A stretch of DNA of 32,000 nucleotides from Erysipelotrichaceae bacterium (GTDB lineage: Bacteria > Bacillota_I > Bacilli_A > Erysipelotrichales > Erysipelotrichaceae): contig JAUVVC010000011.1 of assembly GCA_030604855.1 (NCBI GenBank), forward strand, positions 19,331-51,330, given 5' to 3'. The notes beneath the pieces are model-generated. The model ran no database searches and was not told where the DNA came from. It was given only the letters and a program-made list of their open reading frames with translations. Below are positions 9,858-32,000 of the stretch, piece by piece; the stretch's first letter is position 1; every line of letters begins with the position of its first letter. Made by a program: the position numbers and the translations under genes.

Positions 9858-11066
9858 TCAAACCTGTTTCAAAGCATCTCGCTTGGTGTGGTAATTTCTA
9901 GCATAGACAACTAAGACGACAATCGCGACGGAACAAAACGTTACTGCCGCGATCAAAGAATACGGTTCTGGAAGGATGAATGACAAGGCAATCGTCATCG
10001 CCATACCCAATAAACGTCCCCCATTCAAGGCAAACTCTTTCGCAATGACCCGTCCGGTGATGTTTTCATGTTCGGTGTAATCTTGCATCGCATTCATCAT
10101 GATGATATTGAAGGTGTTGGATACAAAAGGAATCGCCAAAGCATTGACCAGACCAAAATAGACCGCCCCAATCAGATTGGGCACCAAGACCAACATCATC
10201 GTACTTGTAAACAACAACAGCGCGCCATAGAAATAGATTTGGATACGATTGTTACGTTGTATGACACGACTTGCGATGGTATTGGCGATCAAGTTCAAGA
10301 CCGCAAAGCCCGTCAATAAGTCACCGTATAAACTTCCCTTACCGCCCGTCGCATTATAAATCAAGATTCCGGTCATCACGATGAGCATGCTGTCACGCAA
10401 GCCAAAAATGAAATGACTGGTCATGACATAACGCCACTGGCTATCTTCTTTTAGGCTTAACTTATCCCAAACCGTATACGTCTTTGTCTCGAAGAAGTTC
10501 TCGACACGTGTTGAGACAAAAGCCGCCAACATCTGTAAGACGATGACGATCCAGAAGATGCGAATATAACCTTCTGTATCCGTGGTGGACAAACGTACGA
10601 TCATCGTTGCCACAAAAGGTGCTACGATCGTCGATGCCGCATTGAAGATACCCATGGTTGAAATGAATTTAGCACGTGTCTCACGGGTTGAAACCTTAAG
10701 GTTCAATTTAACAATCGAGAACCAATACAACCCTTCACCCGAACCAATGATCAAACCAACCACATAGATTAACAGTATGCTATCCGCAAACAAATGATTA
10801 AACATCAACAAGTACCCCAAAGCACTGATGATGATGATCAAACCTGTCGTTAGAATCGTGGATAAAGACCATTTACGTGAAATGATTCCCGCAATATAAA
10901 AACCCAAAGGAATCATGGTGAACCGAACCATCGCATAAGCTGTCATTGAATAGATGGATCCCGTAAACGCATAGAGATAAACATTAACAAAAACAGCGGA
11001 CATTGTGGCCGCTATAAAATAGATCGCATTGATTAATACCAATAATTTTTCATTCCGATTTAACAT
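9858..11066 (-). CDS. MFS-type secondary transporter, about 402 aa, substrate unknown
   Basis: About 12 hydrophobic segments arranged as two 6-TM halves. I chose the start at 11066 (MLNRNEK...) because GAGGG lies 8 nt upstream. This start overlaps the upstream gene's end by 17 nt. Confidence 0.7.
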   Translation of the reverse strand: MLNRNEKLLVLINAIYFIAATMSAVFVNVYLYAFTGSIYSMTAYAMVRFTMIPLGFYIAGIISRKWSLSTILTTGLIIIISALGYLLMFNHLFADSILLIYVVGLIIGSGEGLYWFSIVKLNLKVSTRETRAKFISTMGIFNAASTIVAPFVATMIVRLSTTDTEGYIRIFWIVIVLQMLAAFVSTRVENFFETKTYTVWDKLSLKEDSQWRYVMTSHFIFGLRDSMLIVMTGILIYNATGGKGSLYGDLLTGFAVLNLIANTIASRVIQRNNRIQIYFYGALLLFTSTMMLVLVPNLIGAVYFGLVNALAIPFVSNTFNIIMMNAMQDYTEHENITGRVIAKEFALNGGRLLGMAMTIALSFILPEPYSLIAAVTFCSVAIVVLVVYARNYHTKRDALKQV

Positions 11067-12405
11067 CGATTTTACCCTCGAACAATTTTGAATGTGCATT
11101 GACCCATTGGTCAGATAAGATTGCGAATTCAATTTGCGCTTCTCGTGGCGTCAGTTCCTTATTCCATAAACGACGAACGACTTCCATCACATCTATATCA
11201 TAATACAAAGCAAAAGCCAAATGTTGCGGATAGTCTTGAATGGCAATCAAAGGCTCACTGATCGATGCTTGATAGGCATACGCAAATTGCTTGCTTCGTT
11301 CATCTTTAAATTCAATCGTACTGAGTACATCTAAATTAGCAAGAGGAATATCCGTATGGGTATCCACATAAACTTGTAAGGCATCCGCTTTGCTTAAAAA
11401 AGACATGACTTCGTGCGCTAAACTTGGATATTGAACATCCTTACTCAAAACATAGCCTCTAATATCATGAAGCAGAGGTCGCAAAGGTTCCGTACTTGAT
11501 TCCTCTGCCTTTGGAAACACCGACACAACCCATTCACTCGCATGCTTACCATCCCATTCATTGAGATACATGAAGTTGGATGCTTGGCTAAAGACGAATT
11601 GATCATTTGCCATGACCAAGGGATAATCCCAAACATAATCTTCTGCTAAATTGGCATCGCTTTGTTCCCAATTCACCGTGGATAAACGTTCAATAAACGT
11701 CAATGCATTGAGAAATTCTTCTTTCTCAATGCCAGGTTCAAAGGATGAGTAGTCTTCAAATAAGTGCCAACCGTAGGCTGTTAAATAAGGATAGAACGAA
11801 AAACGATCATTCAAAGCTAAAACCAAACTATTGGGACTTTGAGATAAGGTTTCACTTTGCGCAAGTATCTTCTCAAACGATTCAAATTCATCATGCAGAT
11901 AGTTATTATTCGCATCCACCCAAGGATAGCCCAATTCTTCCAACTTAGTTTTATTCGTCAAAAAGACGAAACCTTCACCGGTATAAGCTAAAAAGCGTTT
12001 CCCTTCGACATTCAATTCAGAACTGATTTGATCCGGTCGATTGAACTCGAATCCACTCAATGCATAGAGTTGATCATACTGTAAAGCAGCCTCATGAACG
12101 CCAACATATTGAATATCCTTAGAACCTTCTTCTTCTATCAATAACGTTTTAAGACGATCCGGATGGTCAGGATAAGTTGTATTCCATAGCGTCTCTAAAG
12201 CTAGTCCATATTCCGCATTATCCACTTCCACGACTAAACTTGCGCCTTCTTCAAATTCATAGCGATTCAGCTCATCGTTATAACAAACCAGATCCTCTTC
12301 TAGATCACATTTACGTAATGCTTGTGTACCTAAAAATAAGCCCAACATGAGTGTAGAACTTATGAGAATCGCAAGTAAAATCAGGATCGATTTTTTCATC
12401 TTCAT
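11050..12405 (-). CDS. Membrane-anchored extracytoplasmic protein with MalE-like (type-2 periplasmic-binding-protein) organisation, 451 aa
   Basis: N-terminal signal/anchor MKMKKSILILLAILISSTLMLGLFLG with no lipobox. By-eye colinearity with E. coli MalE blocks: FYPYLTAYGWHLFED vs FTWPLIAADGGYAFKY; VSVFPKAEESSTEPLRPLL vs VTVLPTFKGQPSKPFVGVL; C-terminal PQHLAFALYYDIDVMEVVRRL vs PQMSAFWYAVRTAVINA. Confidence 0.5.
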   Translation of the reverse strand: MKMKKSILILLAILISSTLMLGLFLGTQALRKCDLEEDLVCYNDELNRYEFEEGASLVVEVDNAEYGLALETLWNTTYPDHPDRLKTLLIEEEGSKDIQYVGVHEAALQYDQLYALSGFEFNRPDQISSELNVEGKRFLAYTGEGFVFLTNKTKLEELGYPWVDANNNYLHDEFESFEKILAQSETLSQSPNSLVLALNDRFSFYPYLTAYGWHLFEDYSSFEPGIEKEEFLNALTFIERLSTVNWEQSDANLAEDYVWDYPLVMANDQFVFSQASNFMYLNEWDGKHASEWVVSVFPKAEESSTEPLRPLLHDIRGYVLSKDVQYPSLAHEVMSFLSKADALQVYVDTHTDIPLANLDVLSTIEFKDERSKQFAYAYQASISEPLIAIQDYPQHLAFALYYDIDVMEVVRRLWNKELTPREAQIEFAILSDQWVNAHSKLFEGKIDVKSE

Positions 12406-19425: not shown

Positions 19426-19439
19426 TGAAATCGATTACA
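19426..19439. promoter_or_regulatory. cre / LacI-family operator upstream of malL
   Basis: TGAAATCGATTACA (minus strand: TGTAATCGATTTCA). With flanking bases it fits WTGNAANCGNWNNCW perfectly on both strands. It overlaps the stop codon of the EAL-HDOD gene. Confidence 0.6.
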
Positions 19440-20640
19440 ATTCCATTTGTTTGATCCAACGTAAAGCTTCGATATAAAGACCATTAAAGCTTTCCAAATC
19501 AATCTTCCCAAGCGGGAAATCAAATGTTTCTGGATTGATGTCCATGGCTTCATAACGCTTCACAAAATCCAGGACAAGTCTGAGATCATTCTCTTCCCCC
19601 AACAATGCAGCTTTGACAGCGTCAACCAAAGGCATTCCCATAAGGACTTCTTCCATTGGTTTAGAAAGCAAAACATCAATGGATGAAAACATACCTGTTA
19701 ACAGGTAATCAAGGCTTTGTTCTTTAGCCCCACAATACTGCGCCAAATTTTCCATCAGATGCGCACGCACCAAGGATTGTTTGATGAGCTCATGGTTCTC
19801 GACTTGTTGTAAGTCCTTTAATAAGAGCACATTGAACCAACGTCTCAACTCAAGGATGCCGATGCGAACCAAGGCTTGGCGAACAGAGCGGATTGAATAA
19901 CGTGCTCCATAAGAGATGGTGTTCGAAAGTCGGATGACTTTATAGGATAATCCCACATCCAATTCCACAGCTTGTGCGATTCGATTATAATCGGGATCCA
20001 GCGTACGTAATTGATGAATGATGTTCAGAATACTTGTATTCAAGACTCCAATATCGTTCTGTTTATAGATTACCGGTTTACTAAAGAAGAAACCTTGAAA
20101 GTAATCATAACCCATCTGAAGAGCCATATTGAACTCCTCACGCGTTTCAAGACGTTCCGCTAAGAACCGTATCTTATGCTTATGTTTCTTAATCAAGTTC
20201 CGTTGTGTTTCTAGAGATACATTGGGAAATTCGATCTTGATGATATCAACAAGTTCTAGTAAAGGCTCAAAGGATGGATTTAAAACGAAATCATCGAGAG
20301 CCAGAATGTAACCCTTCTCTTTCAAACTTTTACAGGCTTGAATCAAATCTTGATCAACGATGCTGTTCTCTAGGATTTCGATGACCAATTGTTCTTTTGG
20401 CAAGATTTCAGGAACCAAATCACGAACCATGGTATCGGTGAAATTGATGAAGCCTACTTTACCTTCTGTTAGATCATCAATCTGCATCGCAAAAAAGGCA
20501 TTGTAGATAAGATCCCGTGTTGCTTGGTTTCCATCAACGCCTTCATAAAAGTTATTCATGCTTCTTCGATACAAGAGCTCATACCCAAACACATTGCTGT
20601 GTCGATCAAAGATGGGTTGTCTGCCTACATAGACTTCCAT
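19435..20640 (-). CDS. EAL + HDOD domain protein (putative c-di-GMP phosphodiesterase), 401 aa
   Basis: EAL-domain residues: QPIFD...FGYELLYR, FINFT, VIEILE, ALDDF, IIKIE, LAERLET, YFQGFFFSKP. The C-terminal half carries HDOD-type LSYKVIRLSNTISYG...SVRQALVRIGILELRRW. GGGGGAA RBS, 27 nt after fliS. Confidence 0.85.
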   Translation of the reverse strand: MEVYVGRQPIFDRHSNVFGYELLYRRSMNNFYEGVDGNQATRDLIYNAFFAMQIDDLTEGKVGFINFTDTMVRDLVPEILPKEQLVIEILENSIVDQDLIQACKSLKEKGYILALDDFVLNPSFEPLLELVDIIKIEFPNVSLETQRNLIKKHKHKIRFLAERLETREEFNMALQMGYDYFQGFFFSKPVIYKQNDIGVLNTSILNIIHQLRTLDPDYNRIAQAVELDVGLSYKVIRLSNTISYGARYSIRSVRQALVRIGILELRRWFNVLLLKDLQQVENHELIKQSLVRAHLMENLAQYCGAKEQSLDYLLTGMFSSIDVLLSKPMEEVLMGMPLVDAVKAALLGEENDLRLVLDFVKRYEAMDINPETFDFPLGKIDLESFNGLYIEALRWIKQMEL

Positions 20641-23408: not shown

Positions 23409-23741
23409 TCAACCCTTGCGTTCAATATCAATATTTTCGCTAGGCATGAAGTAATTAGAAATCTGCTTTAAACGTTTGCTGGTCTCAAGGGCTTCTTGAG
23501 CGGCTAAACGCCATTGTTCCATCTGTTGAAGAATCAATTCATCGATGACTTGAATGCGTTCGATGAGGTGTTTAAGGTCATCATCCAATTCACAATCAAG
23601 CTCATCGGTCCTTTGCTTTATTTGTTCGCGTTCATTAAGAATGACAAGTAATTCTTCTGGTTCAACGTTCAAAGCACGTAAACTCAAATGTTCATACTGT
23701 TCAAACAAAGAACGCTTAAGCTCAAGCTTACTTTGACTCAT
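23409..23741 (-). CDS. Acidic all-helical 110-aa protein, possible FliT/FlgN-like export chaperone
   Basis: Same-strand ORF that fills the csrA-fliD gap. Coiled-coil-like sequence (NEREQIKQRTDELD..., IERIQVIDELILQQMEQW) loosely reminiscent of Bacillus FliT. The ATG is embedded in the last csrA codons and has no SD. Confidence 0.35.
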   Translation of the reverse strand: MSQSKLELKRSLFEQYEHLSLRALNVEPEELLVILNEREQIKQRTDELDCELDDDLKHLIERIQVIDELILQQMEQWRLAAQEALETSKRLKQISNYFMPSENIDIERKG

Positions 23742-23970
23742 TATTCTTGCGTTGTCTTAGTAGCGCTTTAAGTGCGATTGGATCGGCTTGAATCTGAGCA
23801 CTGCGATTCTCATCTTTGACATTCTCCAATAATTCTTTACGTAGAATCTTCACATCATTGGGTGCGACGATTGCGATACGGACGTTATCTTTGCCAATTT
23901 CTTGGATGATGATTTCAATGCCATCCCCAATTAGGATGGATTCTTTTTCTTTACGTGATAGAACCAACAT
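23728..23970 (-). CDS. csrA: Carbon storage regulator / translational repressor CsrA, 80 aa
   Basis: MLVLSRKEKESILIGDGIEIII...VRIAIVAP..VKILRKEL is the canonical CsrA core. It lies 1 nt after the fliW stop. Confidence 0.95.
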   Translation of the reverse strand: MLVLSRKEKESILIGDGIEIIIQEIGKDNVRIAIVAPNDVKILRKELLENVKDENRSAQIQADPIALKALLRQRKNNESK

Positions 23971-23971
23971 A

Positions 23972-24391
23972 CTAAGCTAACTTCGCTTTCAAAGGAAGAT
24001 CTTGGTCTAAGATACTTTGCATGCCCAAGTTATGCTCAGGACTAAATAACAAAGGACTCTTAAGATTGACGGTGGAATCAGTGAACTGTTCACCTAAGCT
24101 TACGATGCATAAAACATCGATGTCCTTGGTATCTTGAACTTTCAACAATTCTGTTTCTGTGGCTTTAAGTTGAAAGGACACTTCAGGAAAAAGTGCTGTT
24201 GGATTCGCCACCATGAAACAGACTTCAGGTTGATCTATGCCCTGTAACCACATCAAGTCGGACCCAAGATCTTCATCCGCTAACAAGGTATATCGATGGC
24301 AATCTTCGAAGCCATAAATGGGTTGAATGAATTCAATGATGGTTTCGGCTTGAATCTCAAGTGTTCCGAAGTATTTGGTTTGGATGTTCAT
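23972..24391 (-). CDS. fliW: Flagellar assembly factor FliW (CsrA antagonist), 139 aa
   Basis: MNIQTKYFGTLEIQAETIIEFIQPIYGFEDCHRYTLL... is typical of FliW, and the gene sits immediately upstream of csrA. The start at 24391 has an AGAGG RBS; the track extension overlaps the upstream gene. Confidence 0.9.
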   Translation of the reverse strand: MNIQTKYFGTLEIQAETIIEFIQPIYGFEDCHRYTLLADEDLGSDLMWLQGIDQPEVCFMVANPTALFPEVSFQLKATETELLKVQDTKDIDVLCIVSLGEQFTDSTVNLKSPLLFSPEHNLGMQSILDQDLPLKAKLA

Positions 24392-24398
24392 AAGACCT

Positions 24399-24836
24399 CT
24401 ATTTTTTAAGTTCAGGATTTGAACTGGCAGGAACGTAAATCGGTTCCCCTTGATAATCAAAACGTATTTCAGGATATTGTTGGACCTCAAATTCGAGTTC
24501 CGATGGATGATAGGTCATAATACGCTCTTTCATGACCTGCTTAGGTTCTAAACGCAACTGTGAACTTTGTGCATCCATGTAAGGCACGACATCGAGTTCA
24601 TTGGATTCCATGCGTTCATTCAAGTGGGATTGAATGTTTTGTTCAACAGGTTTATGCGTCACATTCTGTTGTCCATACACTGGAATTTCTTGGCTTGGTT
24701 TCAGTTTCTGTACCGGAGCACTCTGACGAATACGATTCGCTTTGAGCTTTGGGGCTTGCGTTTCAATATAGTGACCTTTTTCAACCTTGATCGCAATCTT
24801 GATTGGTTTAGTCGTAATTTTTAAGAGATTATTCAT
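24399..24836 (-). CDS. Hypothetical flagellar-locus protein in the YviE position, 145 aa
   Basis: Located between flgL and fliW, like B. subtilis yviE. Strong AAGGAGG RBS. The C-terminal EIRFDYQGEPIYVPASS resembles the YviE/DUF6470 end as I recall it. Confidence 0.45.
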   Translation of the reverse strand: MNNLLKITTKPIKIAIKVEKGHYIETQAPKLKANRIRQSAPVQKLKPSQEIPVYGQQNVTHKPVEQNIQSHLNERMESNELDVVPYMDAQSSQLRLEPKQVMKERIMTYHPSELEFEVQQYPEIRFDYQGEPIYVPASSNPELKK

Positions 24837-24845
24837 TTTTCCTCC

Positions 24846-25805
24846 TTAACGGATGAAATCAAAGATGGACATCGGTAATACTTTAGAGCCCAACTGCAAG
24901 CTTACTTGCCAGGTGAGTTCAAGGCTCTTGTTTTGAATGAGTTCGGACTCAATATCCACTGCTTCCAGTTTATTTTGCATTTCAGTAAGTTGGAGTTGAT
25001 CGATTTCCATACGATTCTTGGTGTTATCTAAGTAAGCGTTACGTGCTCCAAGATCGGTGAGTGAAACCAGGAGTCGATCGTGTGCTGAGCTTACCTTCTT
25101 ACTCAAGGATTCAAAACCACTAAGGTCATTATTTTTTAGACCTTTACTTAGTTCTTGAAAGACGCGAATGAGGTTGTTGGGTGTTCCGTTATCCATACCG
25201 TAACCTAGAATCTCTAATGGGGATGTGTCACTGCGTACGACACTGCTTTCCTTAACGACTCCACCATTGAATTGAAGTCCTAAACCAATATCAATGAATT
25301 GACCTTTGATCTCTGGTGGGACAAGGGAATCCACATTAAAGCTGTGAATCGAAACGGTCCCATCCCCAAGTACGATCGGAGTTTTTCCATCGGTGCCTGC
25401 GAAGACAGGACGATCCACACCTTGGACATTCATCAACTGAACGATGCTTTCACTGAGATAATCGAGTTCTTTGGCAAGAATTGTTCGTTCACTCGGTCCA
25501 TTGGTATCGCTCTTTGCATTAACCAACAAGCTCTGTGCGCGGGCAATGATTTCATTCATCTGCATCAAACTGGTTTCTTGACCATTAAGATCAAGTTGAA
25601 GCTTGTCGATATTGCGAAGGTATTGTTCGGAGCGTTGGAGTTTATCGCGAACGGTTAAAGCACGTTGTGCATCACTGACATTGTCACTGACACGATTGAG
25701 ACGACGCCCACTGCTCATGCGTTCATTGGAGGTCGCGAGTTGTTTCATATTGCGATGAAGATTATTCAGGTAAGCACGTTGGATATTTTTCTGTGTGATG
25801 CGCAT
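24846..25805 (-). CDS. flgL: Flagellar hook-filament junction protein FlgL (HAP3), 319 aa
   Basis: MRITQKNIQRAYLNNLHRNMKQLATSNERMSSGRRLNRVSDN is a flagellin-like N-terminus, and the C-terminus has heptads. The gene follows flgK by 1 nt. Confidence 0.9.
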   Translation of the reverse strand: MRITQKNIQRAYLNNLHRNMKQLATSNERMSSGRRLNRVSDNVSDAQRALTVRDKLQRSEQYLRNIDKLQLDLNGQETSLMQMNEIIARAQSLLVNAKSDTNGPSERTILAKELDYLSESIVQLMNVQGVDRPVFAGTDGKTPIVLGDGTVSIHSFNVDSLVPPEIKGQFIDIGLGLQFNGGVVKESSVVRSDTSPLEILGYGMDNGTPNNLIRVFQELSKGLKNNDLSGFESLSKKVSSAHDRLLVSLTDLGARNAYLDNTKNRMEIDQLQLTEMQNKLEAVDIESELIQNKSLELTWQVSLQLGSKVLPMSIFDFIR

Positions 25806-25806
25806 C

Positions 25807-27207
25807 TTAACGTCCTACCAATCCCATACGGTTTATGATGGTGTCCAATACTTCGTCCATGGCATTCATGACACGTGCACTGGCTTGAAAGGCTTTCTCA
25901 TAAATCAAGAGGTTGGCACCTTCTTCATCCAGTGAGACTGCACTGATGGAATCTCTTTGTTGAGCAAGATCATTCGCAATGCTGGTGCTGGTTTGGAGGC
26001 GTGAAGCGATAAAATTACGATCTTGTCCAAGTGCGATGACGAACTTGGAGACGAATTCACTCATGGAGCTCTGTTCTTCGTTGATGAGCATCTTGCCTTC
26101 TAACTTTTCAATTAAGGCAAGTATTGGACGATTGTCCAAGCTCCCATTTTCTTTCAGGATGTAAGAGGGTTGTTTGAGCCATGCTTCCTCAATGCTTAAG
26201 CTAGAAGCGGAACTACCACTGATCAATGCTTTTGCTTGATCATCTGTGTTCGTAAATGCTTGATTCATGACTGTCGCAAAGGAACTCGCAAGCTCATTTA
26301 ATTGTCCTTGGTAATAAGCAATCCCTTGTGCGAAAGGATTGTTGCCTTCGATACGCTCGATGCTCGCCTTCAAACTTCCTGCTCCCAAGGAAATGGCTTG
26401 TCCTGTGGATTGCCATTCCAATACAAGTGGATCAGTTGGTTTTAAGAGATTCAATTGGTCACGATAGTCCCCATCCAAAATCAATTGATCATGCATGTGG
26501 ATTTGGATCTGACCATCCGTTTGTGCAGTGACTTTGATATTACCAAAAGTTGCGAGGTGATCGACTAAGAGATTACGTTGGTCCATCAGTTCATTGACCG
26601 CATTCTGTTTGCCTTCTAAGAAGGCTTTGGAGATGCTGTCATTCAAGCCTTGGATTTTACTTAGAGTCGTATTCACGTCATTCACATCAACGGATAAATC
26701 GGAGATGCTCTGTGCTTTCAATCCATTCAATTCTTCTGCATATTGGTTGAACATCTGGATGACGCTCTTGGTTTTAGATAGAACAATATTCGCATTCACT
26801 GCTTGGTTCGGATTCATGCTGAAGTCTTGAAGGGATGAGACCAAATCTTGAAGACTTGGCTTGATGCCACCTTCAATTTCATTCAGTACACCTTCCAAAT
26901 CATCCAATATGGTGAGGGTTTGTTCATAATAACTCTGCTCAGCTAACTCACTGCGATAACGACCATCCAATTGTTGGTCACGGATTTGGGAGACATCGGA
27001 AACCAAAACACCTTGACCACTCATGCCTGCTTGGGTTGTGCGATAACGTGCATCGATGTTGCTCGATACACTCACGACATCAATGCGTTGACGTGTGTAG
27101 CCTTCGGTATTGGCATTGGTGATGTTTTGCCCTGTCACATCCAATCCTTTTTGGCTGACGGTCAAACCTTTACGTGCGGTTTCTAAACCTAAAAATGTGG
27201 AACGCAT
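25807..27207 (-). CDS. flgK: Flagellar hook-associated protein FlgK (HAP1), 466 aa
   Basis: MRSTFLGLETARKGLTVSQKGLDVTGQNITNANTEGYTRQR and the C-terminal VSLDEEGANLLIYEKAFQASARVMNAMDEVLDTIINRMG. Confidence 0.93.
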   Translation of the reverse strand: MRSTFLGLETARKGLTVSQKGLDVTGQNITNANTEGYTRQRIDVVSVSSNIDARYRTTQAGMSGQGVLVSDVSQIRDQQLDGRYRSELAEQSYYEQTLTILDDLEGVLNEIEGGIKPSLQDLVSSLQDFSMNPNQAVNANIVLSKTKSVIQMFNQYAEELNGLKAQSISDLSVDVNDVNTTLSKIQGLNDSISKAFLEGKQNAVNELMDQRNLLVDHLATFGNIKVTAQTDGQIQIHMHDQLILDGDYRDQLNLLKPTDPLVLEWQSTGQAISLGAGSLKASIERIEGNNPFAQGIAYYQGQLNELASSFATVMNQAFTNTDDQAKALISGSSASSLSIEEAWLKQPSYILKENGSLDNRPILALIEKLEGKMLINEEQSSMSEFVSKFVIALGQDRNFIASRLQTSTSIANDLAQQRDSISAVSLDEEGANLLIYEKAFQASARVMNAMDEVLDTIINRMGLVGR

Positions 27208-27208
27208 C

Positions 27209-27595
27209 TTAACGCACCTCCGCAGCTTGATAGATGCTGAGGTTCATATGAATGATTTCCATGCTCTTACGATTGTGGTACTTGATCTGACTGATGGCGT
27301 GTTGAAGACGTTCGTAGGTATGTTCTAAGACAACCTTTTGTTCAGTATCACAAAGTGCGATGACTTCACGTAGACTAAGTTCATTAAAGCCATGGGTCTG
27401 AAAGAAGTTCTGTCTTTCGACTTCTATGTTCTCAATCCGTTTCGCATTGCTTTGTTGCTCAAGAAGATTGGCTTGAATGGCTTGCACATCATTGGACATC
27501 AAAACACTCAGTTTCACTTTCTCTAGCTCAACCATTTCTTCAAAGAACGTCGTATAACGCTCCATGAAGTGTTCGATGTTCATCCAATCAGTCAT
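27209..27595 (-). CDS. flgN: FlgN-like flagellar export chaperone, 128 aa
   Basis: Helical protein in the flgM-flgN-flgK position. It shows a FlgN-type pattern (ELEKVKLSVLMSNDVQAIQANLLEQQ...). Its start overlaps the flgM stop by 8 nt. Confidence 0.6.
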   Translation of the reverse strand: MTDWMNIEHFMERYTTFFEEMVELEKVKLSVLMSNDVQAIQANLLEQQSNAKRIENIEVERQNFFQTHGFNELSLREVIALCDTEQKVVLEHTYERLQHAISQIKYHNRKSMEIIHMNLSIYQAAEVR

Positions 27596-27884
27596 TGTTT
27601 TTACCTTGGTAGGCTAGAATCGCTTCGGCTACTTTACGATGATCGACGGAATAGGTTCCATTTTGAATTTGTTGCTTAAGCTCCTGAACACGTTTGGAAG
27701 AGAATTCTTCTTTAAGTGTTTCCACCACCTTAGATTTAAGTTCAGTCACATCCTGTTTAGGTTTGGTTTCATGCAGTTCTATGGTATCCAATTTTAAAGA
27801 CTTATTTGTCTTCTCTACTTTGTTCACAGGCTTTGGGGCTTGTGTTTTTTGTATCTTCGCAATTGGGTTATTTTCGATTTTCAT
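27588..27884 (-). CDS. flgM: Anti-sigma-28 factor FlgM, 98 aa
   Basis: C-terminal RVQELKQQIQNGTYSVDHRKVAEAIL is the FlgM signature. The start at 27884 (MKIENNPI) has GGGAGGA 6 nt upstream; the track start at 27899 has no RBS. Confidence 0.8.
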   Translation of the reverse strand: MKIENNPIAKIQKTQAPKPVNKVEKTNKSLKLDTIELHETKPKQDVTELKSKVVETLKEEFSSKRVQELKQQIQNGTYSVDHRKVAEAILAYQGKNND

Positions 27885-27920
27885 AATGGATCCTCCCATG
27901 AAAAAAGTTCTTCAACGTGT

Positions 27921-27946
27921 TTATCGAACAACTTTTGAAAAACTTA
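27921..27946 (-). promoter_or_regulatory. Sigma-D/sigma-28-type promoter upstream of flgM
   Basis: The minus strand reads TAAGTTTT-N10-TTCGATAA, i.e. TAAG, 14 nt, TTCGATAA. Reference consensus is TAAAGTTT-N11-GCCGATAA (TAAA-N15-GCCGATAT in Bacillus). It lies 36 nt upstream of the flgM ATG. Confidence 0.55.
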
Positions 27947-27948
27947 AG

Positions 27949-28566
27949 TTAAATATCAATGATTTCCTTCTGACGCTTGAATAAGTACTGCACTATCGCA
28001 TTGGCTGTATTATCATCCACTTGATTGAAGCGTACCCCATAGCCATAATAACCATCTTGAGCAGCACGACAACGCACCACCACACCCATGATCATGAATT
28101 CTTTCCCATCAATGGTGAAGTTTAAACGCATCTTGGTGCGTACCGTTAGGATTGCCTTTGATAAAACCATAGCCCCATTCAAACTCAAGTCTTGTAAGAT
28201 GCAGGACATATTTCGGATGGGTCCACCACCTCGAGCTTCAATCCCAGCTGTCGCTTCGAGATTGACGTTCACGCGGAAGAAATTACGTTGTTCACCTTCT
28301 ACCAAAGTACGTGTATCGATGACACGAAAGAACTCCATGGTTGGTATGTATAAGCGTCCTTCAATCACCAAGGGTTCTAAGACATGGTGACTGATGATGA
28401 CTTTGACATTAAATTCATATCGAGTCAAACTGGATGAACCCAAATCATTCGAAATCTCTAGGAAGTCAGGTCCGATCTTAATGATTTTCCCCTTGGTCAA
28501 TAAATCGTTGCCTTGAGTCCTTAGCTCACAACTGGCAAAGCGATATCCTTCATCGATTAGTGCCAT
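27949..28566 (-). CDS. PilZ-domain c-di-GMP receptor, YcgR/MotI-like two-domain protein, 205 aa
   Basis: The c-di-GMP-binding motifs RxxxR (QRNFFRV) and DxSxxG (DLSLNGA) are both present and are preceded by a roughly 90-aa N-terminal domain. GGGGGA RBS. Confidence 0.8.
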   Translation of the reverse strand: MALIDEGYRFASCELRTQGNDLLTKGKIIKIGPDFLEISNDLGSSSLTRYEFNVKVIISHHVLEPLVIEGRLYIPTMEFFRVIDTRTLVEGEQRNFFRVNVNLEATAGIEARGGGPIRNMSCILQDLSLNGAMVLSKAILTVRTKMRLNFTIDGKEFMIMGVVVRCRAAQDGYYGYGVRFNQVDDNTANAIVQYLFKRQKEIIDI

Positions 28567-28574
28567 GCGTCCCC

Positions 28575-28946
28575 CTAGTGTCTTGGATTTTGTTTAACTT
28601 TAATGACAGCGTTGACTAATGCAGAGATGACATCCGCATCATAACGACGAATCTCCAAAGCTTGATCAAGTTCATTACGCACAATGTATTTAGGCGGAAG
28701 ATTATTGACCGCCAAGGCTAAGACATCTTTAACACAATGATCACATTGACAACACTTGAACTTCTCCATAGCCTCTTCAATGCGTTCTTTCACCGCAAGT
28801 TCTGCGACATTGACCAACACCTTGGGTTGTAGGAAGGGTGTGGGTTGTGGAAGGGGTGTACTTTCTTCCACGATTTTGGTTTGGTTTGATGAAGGCATGA
28901 TTTTCTTATACATGGCTTCTTTATCAATTGAGCGATTATTGGACAT
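28575..28946 (-). CDS. ComFB-domain protein with an N-terminal low-complexity extension, 123 aa
   Basis: KFKCCQCDHCVKDVLALAVNNLPPKYI matches the ComFB Cys-cluster/LALxLNxLPPxY signature. The start at 28946 has a GGGGGA RBS and overlaps the parA-like stop by 11 nt. Confidence 0.75.
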   Translation of the reverse strand: MSNNRSIDKEAMYKKIMPSSNQTKIVEESTPLPQPTPFLQPKVLVNVAELAVKERIEEAMEKFKCCQCDHCVKDVLALAVNNLPPKYIVRNELDQALEIRRYDADVISALVNAVIKVKQNPRH

Positions 28947-29706
28947 GCGTTTCCCCCTGTAAAATCTCTTCAACTAAATTTAAGTAATCTTGTGCCACAT
29001 CCCCTTGTTTGATCAGATCAAAGAGGTCTTGTTGGCTGGATTGTGCTTCCGCAACTTTGATGCTGGAGCGGATGCTTGTATCGAACAACTTGAGTTTTAA
29101 ATCATTGAGGACGAGTTCTGCTGTCCCCTTGACTTCTCTATTCAAGTAAACACGATCGTTGTATTTATTGAGAATGACCCCTTCAATTGTACAGTTCGGA
29201 TTCGAGTATTTACGAACTTGTTGAACCGTTTCATGAAGTTGAGTGATGCCTTGTAGACTGAAGATATCCGCTACCATGGGAATCAAGATGCCATTGCAAG
29301 CACTCATGGCATTGATGGTTAGAATACCTAAACCCGGAGGGGTATCGATCAGGATGTAATCATAGTAGGGACGTATGTTTTGTAATGCATTGCGGAGTAG
29401 GAATTCACGACCACTTTGGGTGTATTCCATTTCGATTCCACTGAGCAAGATGTTCGCCGCAACGATATCGATGATCGCTGTGCGTTGAATGGCGTGTTGG
29501 AGCTTGACTTCACCTTTGAGCACTTCGTAAATGGTTGCACTTAAGACCGTTTCTGCGTTTGCACAAAAAGAGAGATTCCCTTGTGGATCCATATCGATGA
29601 TCAACACTTTATAACCTTGATGTTTAAGCGCTGATGCCAGATTGATGGTGGTGGTCGTTTTACCGACTCCCCCTTTTTGATTGGTAATGGTAAGTATCCG
29701 TGTCAT
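28936..29706 (-). CDS. ParA/Soj-family P-loop ATPase (orphan), 256 aa
   Basis: Deviant Walker A ITNQKGGVGKTTTTINLA, IIDMDPQGN and YILIDTPPGLG motifs. The start at 29706 has a GAGGAG RBS. No parB-like gene is adjacent. Confidence 0.9.
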   Translation of the reverse strand: MTRILTITNQKGGVGKTTTTINLASALKHQGYKVLIIDMDPQGNLSFCANAETVLSATIYEVLKGEVKLQHAIQRTAIIDIVAANILLSGIEMEYTQSGREFLLRNALQNIRPYYDYILIDTPPGLGILTINAMSACNGILIPMVADIFSLQGITQLHETVQQVRKYSNPNCTIEGVILNKYNDRVYLNREVKGTAELVLNDLKLKLFDTSIRSSIKVAEAQSSQQDLFDLIKQGDVAQDYLNLVEEILQGETHVQ

Positions 29707-29765
29707 AGTGCTCCTCAAAAAACCGTACAACAAAACTTTACACTATTTAACTGTCTTTGGGTACC

Positions 29766-30047
29766 TTAACCGTTCTTTTCACGTATCTTTTCAGCCCCAA
29801 TCAAGAGCTGTGTATAGATTTCCGCTATAACTTGATACAACTCAACAGGAATGCTTTCACCTAGCTTTAACATCGTCAATAAACCAGCACTGTGTTCATC
29901 TTCATAAACAGGAATTCCAAGCTTCTCACCGAGATGAATGATCTGCTCAGCAATCGGTCCATAACCGGATGCGATGACAATCGGAGCGTTCTGTTTGGCT
30001 TGGTCGTATTTGAGCGCGACCGCTTTCTTGAGCTTAGGCATAGGCAT
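29766..30047 (-). CDS. Free-standing FlhB C-terminal (FlhB_CC / EscU-YscU-type) domain protein, about 93 aa
   Basis: KKAVALKYDQAKQNAPIVIASGYGPIAEQIIHLGEKLGIPVYEDEHSAGLL...IPVELYQVIAEIY is colinear with the post-NPTH part of FlhB. It has no TM region. The start at 30047 or 30041 overlaps the upstream stop. Confidence 0.8.
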   Translation of the reverse strand: MPMPKLKKAVALKYDQAKQNAPIVIASGYGPIAEQIIHLGEKLGIPVYEDEHSAGLLTMLKLGESIPVELYQVIAEIYTQLLIGAEKIREKNG

Positions 30048-31308
30048 CGATTCCGGTCTGAAGTGCTTGTAGGTGTGGGAAGACATCCAGAAGTGTTCGT
30101 GCGTGTATCCAATCCGAAACACTTAAGCGTTCCACACCATAGCCTAATTTTCGAATGGCTTGGCTCATCGCATCGCGTTGGGCTTCAAACACAATTCGAT
30201 ACTCAGAAGGAACATTCAATTGAATGGAAAGGCGCTTATCCAAGGCATGAACCTCGCATTCGACCATTCCCAACTCATTTAAATCCACAAGCATAAGTAC
30301 CTGAGTTGCCTTACTCTCATTCCCTGTATCAATCCAGACTTCCGCATGCACGACTTGTTCATGAAAGCGAAGGGGTAGATAGATATGATGAAGTGGAATG
30401 TAGTTGGAAGGTGCGTTTAAGATGAAGCGCAGGATATCCTGTAGACTTTGCTTATCCAAGTCAGTACTGTTCTGTTCCGCAAGCTTCAAGAGTTCCACAA
30501 ACTTGCCCATGGTTTTTGAGCCTGAGCGTAGATTCTCTGCAATTGCGTTCTGATAAATGGCTTTTTGCTTGAGGTTACTGTCCTCAGTATCTGAGCGCAA
30601 TAAGCGTGAGAGATGAACTTCCAACAAACGGAAGATCGTTTCAGTATTCGAATCCATCAAACCGTTTTGTTCTATTAGACCTAATAACTTCGTAAGTTCC
30701 TCCTGTAAAGCATGCGCATCCATCTGTGAGCTCTTCTCTAAAACCTCTTTAATATTTCCGTGGAAATAACTTTGATTGTATTTATGCATCAAGGCCTCAA
30801 GATGAGATTGAATGCTTTTACGTGCGCGTGCATGTGTGATCGGCAACAACATACTCTGTATCGCATCAATGACCACGTGTTTCTGACCTTCACTTAGCAT
30901 CTTCCTCAGCTCATCAAACACCTGCCCATAAAAGGTCACATTATTCTGGGCTTGGGTCTTCATCTCTTGAACCAATTGCGATGGATCCAGTGCAAATGAA
31001 GCCAAGAGCTTACCCAACGCTTCTTGAAGTCCTGCATTATCAATAGAGAGCATTTGAACGACGGATTCGATATTTTGATAAGCAAAGATATATTGAGTAC
31101 TCAACTCACTTTGTTTAAGGAGTTCACTTAGTACCGCATTCTCTTGATTGAGTAAACTCAGGTTTTGGCCATGTTCCTCTTTGCGTACATTCAAGGTGTT
31201 GATCTTAGATACATCTTGAATCTGAAAAGGCACCTCAGACTGAGGTTCATGACGTGTGATACTGGGCATCTTTACAGGTGCTTGACTTATTTTAAGTTGA
31301 TCAGCCAT
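30034..31308 (-). CDS. FliK-like (hook-length-control C-terminal domain) protein, 424 aa
   Basis: The C-terminal roughly 90 aa (VLMLVDLNELGMVECEVHALDKRLSIQLNVPSEYRIVFEAQRDAMSQAIRKLGYGVERLSV) follow the FliK Flg_hook pattern. The N-terminal roughly 300 aa are helical and Gln/Leu-rich. No SD precedes the ATG. Confidence 0.55.
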   Translation of the reverse strand: MADQLKISQAPVKMPSITRHEPQSEVPFQIQDVSKINTLNVRKEEHGQNLSLLNQENAVLSELLKQSELSTQYIFAYQNIESVVQMLSIDNAGLQEALGKLLASFALDPSQLVQEMKTQAQNNVTFYGQVFDELRKMLSEGQKHVVIDAIQSMLLPITHARARKSIQSHLEALMHKYNQSYFHGNIKEVLEKSSQMDAHALQEELTKLLGLIEQNGLMDSNTETIFRLLEVHLSRLLRSDTEDSNLKQKAIYQNAIAENLRSGSKTMGKFVELLKLAEQNSTDLDKQSLQDILRFILNAPSNYIPLHHIYLPLRFHEQVVHAEVWIDTGNESKATQVLMLVDLNELGMVECEVHALDKRLSIQLNVPSEYRIVFEAQRDAMSQAIRKLGYGVERLSVSDWIHARTLLDVFPHLQALQTGIDAYA

Positions 31309-31321
31309 AGTTTCTACTTGT

Positions 31322-31347
31322 ATATCGATTGCTTTCGATGAATCTTA
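31322..31347 (-). promoter_or_regulatory. Second sigma-D/sigma-28-type promoter candidate, upstream of the FliK-like gene
   Basis: The minus strand reads TAAG-N14-ATCGATAT, with the same architecture and spacing as the flgM promoter. The -10 element ends only 13 nt before the ATG. Confidence 0.4.
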
Positions 31348-31363
31348 AATGTCAGTATTTACC

Positions 31364-31403
31364 AAAAAAAAGAATCCCTAGGCTATTCATAGCTTTGGGA
31401 TTC
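31364..31403 (-). terminator. Intrinsic terminator after the flagellin gene
   Basis: Read on the minus strand: GAATCCC (31403-31397), an inner GCTAT/ATAGC stem, GGGATTC (31378-31372), then eight T (31371-31364). It begins 8 nt after the flagellin stop. Confidence 0.85.
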
Positions 31404-31410
31404 AGACTAA

Positions 31411-32000
31411 TTAACGTAATAATTGTAGAACGGATTGAGGTTGTTGGTTGGCTTGAGCAATCATCGCTTGAGCTGCTTGAGAAAGGATATTGTTCTTCGT
31501 CATTTCCATCATTTCTTTAGCCATATCCACATCGCGGATACGGGATTCGGAAGCAACTAGGTTTTCAGAAGTTGTAGCCAAGTTATTAATAGTGTGTTCT
31601 AGACGGTTTTGTAAAGACCCATAGACTGCGCGTTGGGTATTTACTGTACTAATCAAGTCTTCAACACCAGAAACACCAGTAATCAAGGTTGTACTTGTTA
31701 ATTTTGCTGTTGATAGTTTAGCAACTACATTGGTTGCTCCTGTAATACTTAAACTTGTTGCTGCATCGTGGGAGATTGCGACACCCACTGTAGTGGTGAA
31801 TACATTCTTACCATTGAACTCAGTTTTATCAATAATATTTTTGATTTCATCTCCAAGTGAGTTTATTTCTGCGTTGATGTTTGCTACATCATCTGTATTA
31901 TAAGTACCGTTTGCTTTCTGAACTGCGAGTTCTTTAGCACGTGTAAGCATGCTGGATACTTCTGTCAGTGCACCTTCTGCAGTTTGGATGAATGAGATCC
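31411..32000 (-). CDS. fliC: Flagellin, C-terminal about 195 aa; the N-terminal end lies beyond the window edge
   Basis: C-terminus QNRLEHTINNL...ESRIRDVDMAKEMMEMTKNNILSQAAQAMIAQANQQPQSVLQLLR. The frame stays open upstream of the track's Met to position 32000 and reads ...ISFIQTAEGALTEVSSMLTRAKELAVQ, which is the flagellin N-domain. Confidence 0.95.
   Translation of the reverse strand, partial: ISFIQTAEGALTEVSSMLTRAKELAVQKANGTYNTDDVANINAEINSLGDEIKNIIDKTEFNGKNVFTTTVGVAISHDAATSLSITGATNVVAKLSTAKLTSTTLITGVSGVEDLISTVNTQRAVYGSLQNRLEHTINNLATTSENLVASESRIRDVDMAKEMMEMTKNNILSQAAQAMIAQANQQPQSVLQLLR

Follow-up and report, generated by a model that had tools for sequence, protein, structure and literature searches.

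What does a small ParA-type ATPase do inside a flagellar operon, and with which protein does it work? The question is raised by a 32,000-nt stretch of the genome of a gut Erysipelotrichaceae bacterium (the window, meaning here the whole stretch that was analysed), in which the ATPase gene and a ComFB-family gene lie together within a late flagellar operon. The pair is real, conserved and apparently undescribed; a literature search found no paper linking ComFB to ParA, in keeping with the preliminary description of this DNA, whose author knew of no such system. The preferred reading, given a probability of about 0.5, is that the ParA-type ATPase is a dedicated one with the ComFB protein as its cognate partner, the two forming a two-protein flagellar/chemotaxis module in Clostridia and Erysipelotrichia. 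The two genes and their immediate landmarks are as follows.

28936–29706, minus strand: ParA-type ATPase gene, 256 aa (open reading frame with ribosome-binding site; Pfam AAA_31/CbiA)
29653–29676, minus strand: deviant Walker A motif KGGVGKTT, residues 11–18 of the ATPase (sequence reading)
28575–28946, minus strand: ComFB-family gene, 123 aa (Pfam PF10719; ATG at 28946, stop at 28575)
28936–28946, minus strand: 11-nt overlap of the ParA stop region with the ComFB start, indicating translational coupling (open reading frame coordinates)

The N-terminus of the ATPase reads MTRILTITNQKGGVGKTT, with GAGGAG standing 5 nt 5' of the ATG and NQKGGVGKTT occupying residues 9–18. By its signature lysine and by profile scores well above threshold (AAA_31, E=4e-53, 180 bits against a cut-off of 27; CbiA, E=6e-27, 94.5 bits against 25.4), the protein is a member of the ParA/MinD (deviant Walker A) superfamily, and the Walker A residues K11, G12, G13, G15, K16 and T17 are identical in all 16 diverse members of its clade. 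The closest PDB matches are chromosomal ParA/Soj proteins (8RAY, E=2.5e-44; 6IUB, E=1.9e-38). Over the whole PDB search, E-values lie between 1e-34 and 1e-44 for ParA/Soj, between 1e-9 and 1e-19 for MinD and at about 1e-7 for FleN, and an FlhG/FleN/MinD identity is ruled out by this difference. Only 10 residues precede the Walker A motif, the chain stops with the final helix of the fold (..LVEEILQGETHVQ; ..DELLxRGL in the clade), and sequence comparison finds in it neither a C-terminal amphipathic membrane-targeting helix nor an N-terminal activator peptide.

The clade is Soj-like, yet two arginines are missing from its counterpart of the 'PRNVRLSEAP' segment of Soj; both are basic positions conserved in all four Soj/ParA references used for comparison. 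Numbered on what we take to be the B. subtilis Soj sequence, the equivalents of R215 and R218 (R235 and R238 in Myxococcus xanthus) are N, S or H and A, V or S, respectively. K217 is present at this segment in the window protein only, a shifted arginine (R213) is common among the clade members inspected, and the equivalent of R189 is Arg in 68 of 76 members. M. xanthus ParA-R238E is reportedly defective in DNA binding, and because the R235/R238 equivalents are not conserved in the clade, a nucleoid-based ParA gradient is uncertain here. Of the four M. xanthus ParA residues that surround ParB R13, the clade retains three (Y60 in 76/76, D/E61 in 66/76 and E94 in 74/76 members). As judged from these alignments, Soj, FlhG and MinD all differ from the clade of ComFB-linked ATPases. 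The initial assignment as a 256-aa Soj/ParA-type ATPase with a KGGVGKTT Walker A is upheld by the reading frame, Pfam and the PDB matches; its placement as a classical Soj stands as far as the general likeness and the distance from FlhG and MinD are concerned, but not for the two lost arginines.

The chromosomal best matches, together with the names 'Soj' or 'chromosome partitioning protein' that some databases give to relatives, would suit a housekeeping partition ATPase that lies beside ComFB by chance. This is highly improbable. The score for the NCBIfam ParA_partition equivalog (NF041546) is 106 bits, under the cut-off of 180; the R215/R218 equivalents are lost; and a ParB gene adjoins the ATPase neither in the window nor in more than 100 other loci, ComFB standing downstream instead. 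The adjacency with ComFB is invariant over Bacillota orders, and a fusion of the two proteins exists. Profile searches detect no ParB, FlhF or FlhG encoded anywhere in the 32 kb, so the earlier observation that ParB and FlhF are missing near the ATPase extends to the whole window. The label 'orphan' that had accompanied it is withdrawn, because ComFB always adjoins this ATPase.

The evidence for that constancy comes from one-genome-per-species contigs, scanned at the DNA level with the pattern K[ED]xM[YF]xKIMP, a motif from the N-terminus of the ComFB protein. The scan gave 181 matching stretches, 170 of them coding for a ComFB relative; at a minimum, 170 species of Bacillota have the two-gene unit beside flagellar and chemotaxis genes. 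Wherever a fetched locus includes enough upstream DNA, a ParA gene lies directly upstream of ComFB on the same strand (79 of 79 genome loci and 27 of 27 metagenome loci), and the reverse look-up, from ParA alone, places ComFB directly downstream in 4/4 relatives. The distance between the two genes, measured in 78 pairs, has a median of 2–3 nt and extremes of −23 and +185 nt, and tightly coupled pairs are found in Erysipelotrichales, Oscillospirales, Lachnospirales and Sedimentibacter. Carriers that can be cultured include Eisenbergiella tayi DSM 26961, Sedimentibacter acidaminivorans DSM 24004, Diplocloster, Caproicibacterium and Caproiciproducens. A metagenome scan aimed at ComFB genes without the motif yielded motif-bearing genes only, including new motif variants; the motif-less control for ParA adjacency consists of one paralogue (L014), B. 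subtilis ComFB and published neighbourhoods.

Three proteins of 463–506 aa (P0122, P0123 and P0124) carry a complete ParA fused to the motif, a linker and a ComFB domain, the motif coming straight after the ParA C-terminus. P0122 and P0123 derive from contigs of two different samples, in both cases after cheC-cheD. A search of the fused protein against a representative library recovers just one fused cluster, of the same lineage, and the fusion is therefore rare. Another candidate, P0121, was rejected: its contig abounds in split genes, and the apparent fusion is an artefact of a frameshift. One locus (L088) encodes a second ParA whose own N-terminus carries a motif-like peptide, NKKTLYEMLMPTD. 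The preliminary description had reported the 11-nt overlap, which is exact, and had proposed to look for co-occurrence and fusion of the two genes; the former turns out to be strict, and the latter is seen in two independent samples.

The ComFB protein itself is identical in length and start to a database entry (P0001) and is divided into three parts.

28887–28946, minus strand: conserved N-terminal motif MSNNRSIDKEAMYKKIMPSS, residues 1–20, the proposed ParA-interaction/activation peptide (conservation)
28827–28886, minus strand: variable, disordered Pro/Gln-rich linker, residues 21–40 (AF2 pLDDT about 52–67), holding an 18-nt tandem
28578–28826, minus strand: ComFB domain, residues 41–123, with CCxCxxC (C65, C66, C68, C71) and a C-terminal His123

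By profile (PF10719, 58.4 bits against a cut-off of 25, residues 45–121) and by predicted fold the protein is a member of the ComFB/CdgR family. The AF2 model has a domain pLDDT of about 90, and Foldseek matches it to 4WAI (TM 0.74, rmsd 2.2 Å) and also to 8HJA. C66, C68, C71 and H123 are invariant in the homologue alignment. Window residues N46, E49, D74, A77, L78, N81, Y87 and I88 align with N4, E7, D33, A36, L37, N40, Y46 and V47 of the B. subtilis protein, so that 8 of 9 compared dimerisation or c-di-GMP-contact residues are retained by sequence alignment; the remaining contact, K/R41, is Asn (N82) in the window and variable within the clade, and Y55 of the B. subtilis protein found no aligned counterpart. 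The window protein is a putative cyclic-dinucleotide receptor. In B. subtilis, ComFB is a c-di-GMP-binding inhibitor of flagellar function whose target is unknown (PMC12265714).

The first 20 residues are the best-conserved stretch of the protein, holding 5 of its 9 invariant columns. Over 92 distinct N-termini the consensus is M-A-K-[ST]-K-K-[ED]-[IFL]-D-K-[ED]-x-M-[YF]-x-K-I-M-P-[ST], or in shorter form MAKxKKE[IF]DKExM[YF]xKIMPS, in which lysines fall at −11, −9, −8, −4 and +2 and positions −6, −1, 0, +3 and +4 are hydrophobic; KEAMYKKxMP is unchanged even in a homologue of 26% identity. AF2 predicts a short helix at residues 9–16 (pLDDT 60–65). The homologues share the order of motif, variable disordered linker and Zn-type ComFB fold; their linkers can be as short as about 20 aa or exceed 170 aa. 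An N-terminal extension of about 45 aa, basic in its first part, had been noticed from the start. It is genuine, as the first residues of the B. subtilis protein (PDB 4WAI) align only from window residue 41 on, and its basic part proves to be a conserved basic and hydrophobic peptide on a disordered tether. The Pro-rich tandem of the linker, previously placed at 28824–28859, also exists (two imperfect 18-nt copies at 28823–28858, spacing 18, 83% identical, hence one nucleotide off in register), but the importance attached to it does not hold, the conserved element being the first 20 residues. TRF leaves the tandem unscored, below its threshold, and it is judged to be incidental low-complexity linker sequence of no significance of its own.

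With a conserved, positively charged peptide at its extreme N-terminus, a disordered tether and a gene adjoining that of the ATPase, ComFB has the features of a ParA partner. Partners of ParA/MinD ATPases work through N-termini that are disordered and carry positive charge (PMC10241942), as the preliminary description had noted; the motif of ParB combines aliphatic and basic residues, in a study that also makes use of the ParA-R238E variant of M. xanthus (bioRxiv 10.1101/2025.03.14.642875). On the preferred reading, the partner would be a dimeric ComFB-family receptor for a cyclic dinucleotide, with a basic/hydrophobic helix tethered flexibly to each subunit. The ATP-bound ParA dimer would take up the two helices of one ComFB dimer, which would stimulate ATP hydrolysis after the model of the ParB, McdB, TlpT, PomX and MinE peptides and their ATPases. 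With c-di-GMP (or c-di-AMP) bound at the interface of the ComFB dimer, the presentation of the peptides or of a cargo-binding surface would change. In this way the level of the second messenger would bear on flagella, or on the chemosensory arrays steering them: on where they are placed, how many there are or how active they are. ParA would act on a matrix, the nucleoid or another, and the cargo would presumably be a part of this motility apparatus.

It is unlikely, though conceivable, that the target of the motif is not ParA but, for instance, a component of the flagellar switch, stator or export apparatus, and that ParA is co-functional, touching the ComFB domain or nothing. In an AF2 model of window ParA and ComFB joined head to tail (unpaired alignment, ParA as a monomer without ATP), residues 253–293 have a pLDDT below 50 and the peptide is left undocked. 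B. subtilis ComFB, moreover, affects motility with neither the motif nor a ParA, and the ComFB domain may possess a flagellar target of its own. Both points favour this explanation and speak against the preferred one, although the model is not taken as a negative result. Against such a role for the motif, it co-occurs with ParA without exception, it directly follows the ParA C-terminus in the natural fusion, and in L088 a motif-like peptide is joined to ParA itself. Covariation between the motif and ParA is not clean and is confounded by phylogeny: all 8 members with K(+2) replaced by L have H in place of E/D61 of ParA, as do 5 members that keep K(+2).

The surroundings of the pair point to motility.

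19435–20640, minus strand: EAL-HDOD protein at the end of the cluster (Pfam EAL and HDOD)
23409–27899, minus strand: late flagellar genes flgM, flgN, flgK, flgL, a 145-aa reading frame, fliW, csrA and a 110-aa reading frame (Pfam)
27949–28566, minus strand: canonical PilZ-domain protein, 205 aa (Pfam PilZ, E=1.7e-16), with RxxxR (QRNFFR) and DxSxxG (DLSLNG)
29766–30035, minus strand: protein of 89 aa consisting of the FlhB C-terminal domain only, directly upstream of ParA (Pfam Bac_export_2; TIGR00789 flhB_rel, E=4e-24)
30034–31308, minus strand: FliK-like protein, 424 aa (weak Pfam Flg_hook match)

The PilZ gene starts 8 nt downstream of ComFB, has a homologue in 24 of 81 related loci, and probably encodes a MotI/YcgR-like c-di-GMP brake. 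It shares the operon of the pair with the EAL-HDOD gene, the product of which suggests a link to c-di-GMP turnover or sensing. Synteny of the FliK-like gene with FlhB-C and PilZ extends to many related loci, and the 145-aa frame is syntenic with genes named DUF6470 in homologous loci, from which that name is taken. No minus-strand terminator-like site was found by a terminator scan of 27500–32000, which like a sigma-70 promoter scan is uninformative, and no sigma-D-type promoter (TAAA-N13-17-CCGATA) near the pair. In the related loci, FlgK/FlgL homologues lie inside the fetched flank in 52 of 81 cases. No FlhF-like or FlhG-like P-loop frame occurs in any locus examined, and in all 8 distinct related loci with flhA, the stretch from flhA to the sigma-factor gene (sigD), where flhF and flhG usually sit, contains neither.

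Some neighbourhoods are those of chemotaxis genes. The pair directly follows cheC-cheD in five loci (L003, L070, L082, L086, L087) and precedes cheW-MCP-cheW in three (L085, L090, L091), some loci having cheW-MCP-cheW-flgM. ComFB could be the adaptor between ParA and chemosensory clusters, cytoplasmic or membrane-bound, so that the system would position chemoreceptor arrays as ParC-ParP or PpfA-TlpT do. This is improbable, however, since che genes are neighbours in a minority of loci, late flagellar genes being nearest in most; none is present within the window, and ComFB has no CheW-like or MCP-like domain.

A further alternative, less likely than the preferred reading, is a nucleotide-dependent regulatory switch with no spatial gradient, comparable to FleN-FleQ or Soj-DnaA, in which c-di-GMP-bound ComFB would gate the ATPase cycle and so control late flagellar expression, export-gate specificity or the on/off state of the motor. 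The pair is divergent from flgM-flgN-flgK-flgL in most Clostridia, the export-switch proteins (FlhB-C-only and FliK-like) recur near it in related loci, the loss of two Soj/ParA basic residues in the clade argues against a nucleoid gradient, and known ComFB/CdgR proteins bind the regulators DevH and SyCRP1/2 in a c-di-GMP-dependent manner. On the other side, small ParAs have no specific DNA-binding domain, a transcription factor is never a constant neighbour of the pair, and a tethered N-terminal peptide is typical of ParA/MinD positioning partners. The fullest form of the positioning idea would have a cyclic-di-GMP-gated ParA system replacing FlhF/FlhG in many flagellated Clostridia and Erysipelotrichia, with the ComFB dimer as cargo adaptor, its two N-terminal peptides driving the ParA cycle and the messenger setting where, or how many, flagella or chemosensory arrays are built or kept active; in all these particulars it is speculative and rather unlikely.

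The preferred two-protein module resembles several known systems without coinciding with any. With ParABS it shares a small ATPase of Soj type that has a deviant Walker A, a partner gene immediately downstream and translationally coupled, a partner expected to be dimeric in which a disordered region opens with a conserved basic/aliphatic peptide, and the ParA residues around the ParB R13 site (Y81, E82, E117). It differs in that the partner has a ComFB fold rather than being a ParB/Srx CTPase with HTH, in having no parS and no conserved equivalents of M. xanthus R235/R238, and in its flagellar rather than oriC or plasmid context. FlhG (YlxH/FleN/MinD2) is likewise a ParA/MinD ATPase of flagellar operons, controlling flagellar number or place, and contact with its partner FlhF is made through a short N-terminal peptide. 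The window ParA, in contrast, has no GKGGxGK loop, DQAxxLR-type N-terminal activator or C-terminal membrane helix, and its similarity to FleN is slight (about E=1e-7); the proposed activating peptide is on the partner and not on the ATPase, and ComFB is not an SRP-type GTPase. In Pseudomonas, FleN-FleQ joins a ParA/MinD-type ATPase to a c-di-GMP receptor in control of the flagellar programme, a putative combination here; FleQ, however, is an AAA+ enhancer-binding transcription factor, while ComFB has no DNA-binding or AAA+ domain, and gene organisation and phyla are unlike.

ParC-ParP of Vibrio and PpfA-TlpT of Rhodobacter also place a ParA-like ATPase in motility or chemotaxis loci, as where the present pair abuts che genes, and there the N-terminus of the partner stimulates the ATPase, for which a counterpart is proposed here. 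Their partners carry CheW-like or MCP domains, which ComFB does not, and most ParA-ComFB loci abut late flagellar genes. In McdA-McdB, PomZ-PomX/Y and MinD-MinE an ATPase is again accompanied by an adjacent partner presenting a short, charged N-terminal activating peptide, but the cargos are the carboxysome or divisome, the partner folds are unrelated, and no second-messenger receptor is found among those partners. Finally, B. subtilis ComFB and the cyanobacterial CdgR/ComFB proteins have the same fold (Foldseek 4WAI, 8HJA), and with the former the window protein shares the Zn-type cysteines, most dimerisation and c-di-GMP-contact residues and a genomic link to flgM and motility. These relatives have neither the N-terminal motif nor a ParA neighbour; the cyanobacterial partners are the CRP-family regulators DevH and SyCRP1/2, and that of B. 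subtilis is unknown.

As a new ParA/partner system that responds to a signal and controls motility, ParA-ComFB is a strong candidate, and it would add to the ParA/partner theme a variant in which the partner is a ComFB receptor. If this is true, a second-messenger receptor becomes a new class of partner for ParA/MinD systems; to our knowledge, the partners described so far (ParB, MinE, McdB, ParP/TlpT, PomXY, FlhF) are not ligand sensors of the ComFB kind. The peptide motif, short and sharply defined, is open to direct tests by point mutation and by use of the peptide itself. In motility control, where the target of ComFB in B. subtilis has been explicitly left open (PMC12265714), this receptor family of recent definition would gain a concrete and testable candidate for a downstream partner. 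For the many gut and rumen Clostridia and Erysipelotrichaceae whose fla operons run from flhA to sigD with no flhF or flhG between, the pair provides a candidate for the regulation of flagella.

The gene pair noted in the preliminary description, a small ParA-type ATPase gene followed by a ComFB-domain gene, is confirmed. It lies on the minus strand within a single late flagellar cluster (19.4–32.0 kb of the window), listed below in cluster order, while the remainder of the window carries genes for glycolysis, glycogen and transport.

Genes of the late flagellar cluster (all on the minus strand)
Running off the window end, partial, minus: flagellin gene, first in the cluster order
31308–30034, minus: FliK-like protein
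30035–29766, minus: protein consisting of the FlhB C-terminal domain only
29706–28936, minus: ParA
28946–28575, minus: ComFB
28566–27949, minus: PilZ
After PilZ, minus: FlgM, FlgN, FlgK, FlgL, in this order
24399–24836, minus: 145-aa ORF between flgL and fliW, no Pfam match, syntenic with the DUF6470 genes of relatives
After the 145-aa ORF, minus: FliW
23970–23728, minus: CsrA
23409–23741, minus: 110-aa ORF between csrA and fliD, no Pfam match; like the 145-aa ORF, a conserved flagellar-cluster ORF
After the 110-aa ORF, minus: FliD, FliS
20640–19435, minus: EAL-HDOD protein, closing the cluster

ParA has the proposed length of 256 aa (start MTRILTITNQKGGVGKTT, ribosome-binding site GAGGAG), and the 11-nt overlap also holds, with the ComFB ATG at 28946, 11 nt ahead of the ParA end. 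A scan of 27.5–32.0 kb, which takes in the pair and its neighbours, showed no minus-strand terminator-like site. The whole 32-kb window encodes no ParB or FlhF, as had been stated, and no FlhG. Near-identical loci are present in uncultured Erysipelotrichaceae MAGs, such as UBA4808. Outside the cluster, an ORF of 451 aa (11050–12405) that lacks a Pfam match overlaps by 83 nt the listed upstream end of an MFS transporter ORF (9858–11132).

Co-occurrence of the two genes across genomes, previously suggested as a check, is borne out: ParA lies upstream in all loci with room. In ComFB homologues down to 26% identity the N-terminal peptide (about the first 20 residues) is almost invariant, and a scan for this motif alone (K[ED]xM[YF]xKIMP; one genome per species, 185,579 species) gave 181 matches, 170 of which encode a ComFB relative. 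In the 80 loci fetched, ParA is directly upstream on the same strand wherever the contig reaches, the sole exception starting 328 nt from a contig end, and the median gap between the genes is 2–3 nt (extremes -23 and +185 nt). Carriers include Erysipelotrichales, Oscillospiraceae, Ruminococcaceae, Lachnospiraceae (Eisenbergiella, Robinsoniella, Diplocloster) and Sedimentibacter. An independent scan of metagenome contigs, seeded with the ComFB domain (KF[NKD]CCxC[DE]xC), returned 30 loci, and all 27 that had room for it carry ParA upstream; the metagenome loci added the motif variants FDKDYIFNLIMP, IDRELMYKKILP and TE[HR]LY[DN]LLMP. Starting from ParA alone, all four relatives picked have ComFB 0–3 nt downstream. 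The negative control is thin: a second ComFB paralogue of 97 aa in the genome of locus L014 lacks both motif and ParA. Adjoining this paralogue is a 425-aa ORF (L014:14283–15967) with an N-terminus that is EAL-like by look.

flgK/flgL occur within the fetched flank of 52 of 81 loci with the pair. The commonest layout has the pair divergent from flgM-flgN-flgK-flgL-DUF6470-fliW-csrA; in Erysipelotrichaceae the order is co-directional, as in the window, and in some lineages the pair follows cheC-cheD or precedes cheW-MCP-cheW-flgM. PilZ, FlhB-C-only and FliK-like genes are recurrent neighbours. The FliK-like gene, the stand-alone FlhB C-terminal domain (~90 aa) and a two-part PilZ recur together near the pair (window 29766–31308 and 27949–28566; L003:12712–17269; L018, L030, L063, L068 and others), and a ~690-aa actin-like protein (MreB/FtsA/PilM-type) stands between PilZ and FlhB-C in L003, L070 and L082. 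The usual site of flhF and flhG in Firmicutes is between flhA and the sigma-factor gene. In all eight distinct flhA-containing loci (L001, L003, L060, L063, L068, L070, L080, L082) sigD/fliA directly follows flhA (e.g. L003:2017–4928), with flhF and flhG absent from between them, and no fetched locus contains an FlhF-like or FlhG-like P-loop ORF. Not every pair is in a flagellar cluster, since that of L084 (10001–11260, on a contig of low quality where the two genes read as a single frameshifted ORF) sits amid DAHP synthase, ribosomal-protein genes and mreCD, with no flagellar gene within 10 kb. Overall, the two tightly coupled genes form a real and widespread module within the flagellar/chemotaxis regulon of Bacillota.

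The nearest solved relatives of the window ParA are chromosomal ParA/Soj proteins (M. xanthus 8RAY, E=2.5e-44; H. pylori, 1.9e-38; T. thermophilus, 3.3e-34), with much weaker matches to MinD and FleN, and it falls below the NCBIfam partition-ParA cut-off. In an alignment of 76 ComFB-linked ParA proteins with four references, one of them what we take to be the B. subtilis Soj sequence, the clade is marked by DIFSLQG versus EYYALEG in the references, IRxS...EAQS versus their IPRNVRLSEAPS, and a 3-residue insertion. The clade does not conserve the basic residues matching M. xanthus R235/R238; it does conserve the equivalent of R189 in the presumed B. subtilis Soj, and three of the four M. xanthus ParA residues placed next to ParB R13 are kept (Y81, E82, E117). 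The ATPase has neither an N-terminal extension nor a C-terminal membrane helix.

The window ComFB (123 aa, as in database protein P0001) has its Pfam domain at residues 45–121. The N-terminal extension described earlier is real, because the alignment with B. subtilis ComFB (4WAI), which starts at that protein's first residues, begins at residue 41 of the window protein. Among 92 distinct N-termini the motif reads M-A-K-[ST]-K-K-[ED]-[IFL]-D-K-[ED]-x-M-[YF]-x-K-I-M-P-[ST], and the first 20 residues hold five of the protein's nine invariant columns. The linker that follows spans ~20 to >170 residues and is often repetitive, with QPQVAEQPVA in variable copy number (fused proteins P0122–P0124), PEPxP (L088:2111–2854) and an 18-nt duplication (window 28823–28858). 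The last of these, noted before as a tandem, does exist (2 x 18 nt, 83% identity) but is below the TRF threshold and in the variable linker. This proneness to short tandem repeats suggests that only linker length or flexibility matters. In the AF2 model, built from 30 aligned sequences, residues 9–16 form a short helix (pLDDT ~60–65), followed by a low-confidence tether and a confident ComFB domain (pLDDT ~90). The domain matches 4WAI (TM 0.74, 2.2 A) as well as 8HJA, a structure of CdgR with c-di-GMP. C66, C68, C71 and a C-terminal His are invariant in the homologues; of the dimerisation and c-di-GMP-contact residues in the ComFB family paper (PMC12448109), eight are kept, and K/R41 is Asn in the window protein.

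Natural gene fusions, also suggested earlier as a check, were found with a profile of concatenated pairs, in which fused proteins rank first. P0122, P0123 and P0124 (463–506 aa) comprise a complete ParA, continuing in frame through ..KKSLNREQMYQKIMP.., a Pro/Gln-rich repeat linker of varying copy number, and a ComFB domain; P0122 and P0123 come from contigs of two different samples, each after cheC-cheD. Fusion is rare, since there is a single fused cluster among 1.84 billion representatives. A further candidate, P0121, was rejected as a frameshift artefact. In L088 (335–2854) a ParA gene is followed by a second ParA, whose own N-terminus bears a motif-like peptide (NKKTLYEMLMPTD) plus a linker of ~40 aa, and then by a ComFB that combines the canonical motif with a long linker of PEPxP repeats.

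Neighbourhoods with flagellar, pilus, hfq and GGDEF genes are covered in the ComFB family paper (PMC12448109) and its preprint, neither of which mentions ParA, Soj, MinD or FlhG. In line with the earlier statement that no described ParA-ComFB system is known, no paper combining ComFB with "ParA family" or FlhG was found in the literature searched. In B. subtilis, ComFB is a c-di-GMP-binding protein that inhibits flagellar function via an unidentified target (PMC12265714), and in cyanobacteria the binding of CdgR to DevH or SyCRP1/2 is sensitive to c-di-GMP. The partners of ParA/MinD ATPases reportedly work by way of disordered N-termini that carry positive charge (PMC10241942).

When the window ParA and ComFB were joined head to tail (AF2, unpaired alignment), both domains folded and residues 253–293, including the motif, had pLDDT <50; as the dimer-interface pocket cannot arise in an ATP-free monomer, the model speaks neither for nor against binding. 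The pattern of compensatory changes between motif and ParA is not clean. On the best reading, the pair comprises a dedicated ParA ATPase whose cognate partner is a second-messenger receptor of the ComFB type. For such a system we infer an interaction of the two proteins, ligand binding by ComFB, and a matrix and cargo for ParA; the invariant N-terminal peptide of ComFB would be the ParA-contact element.
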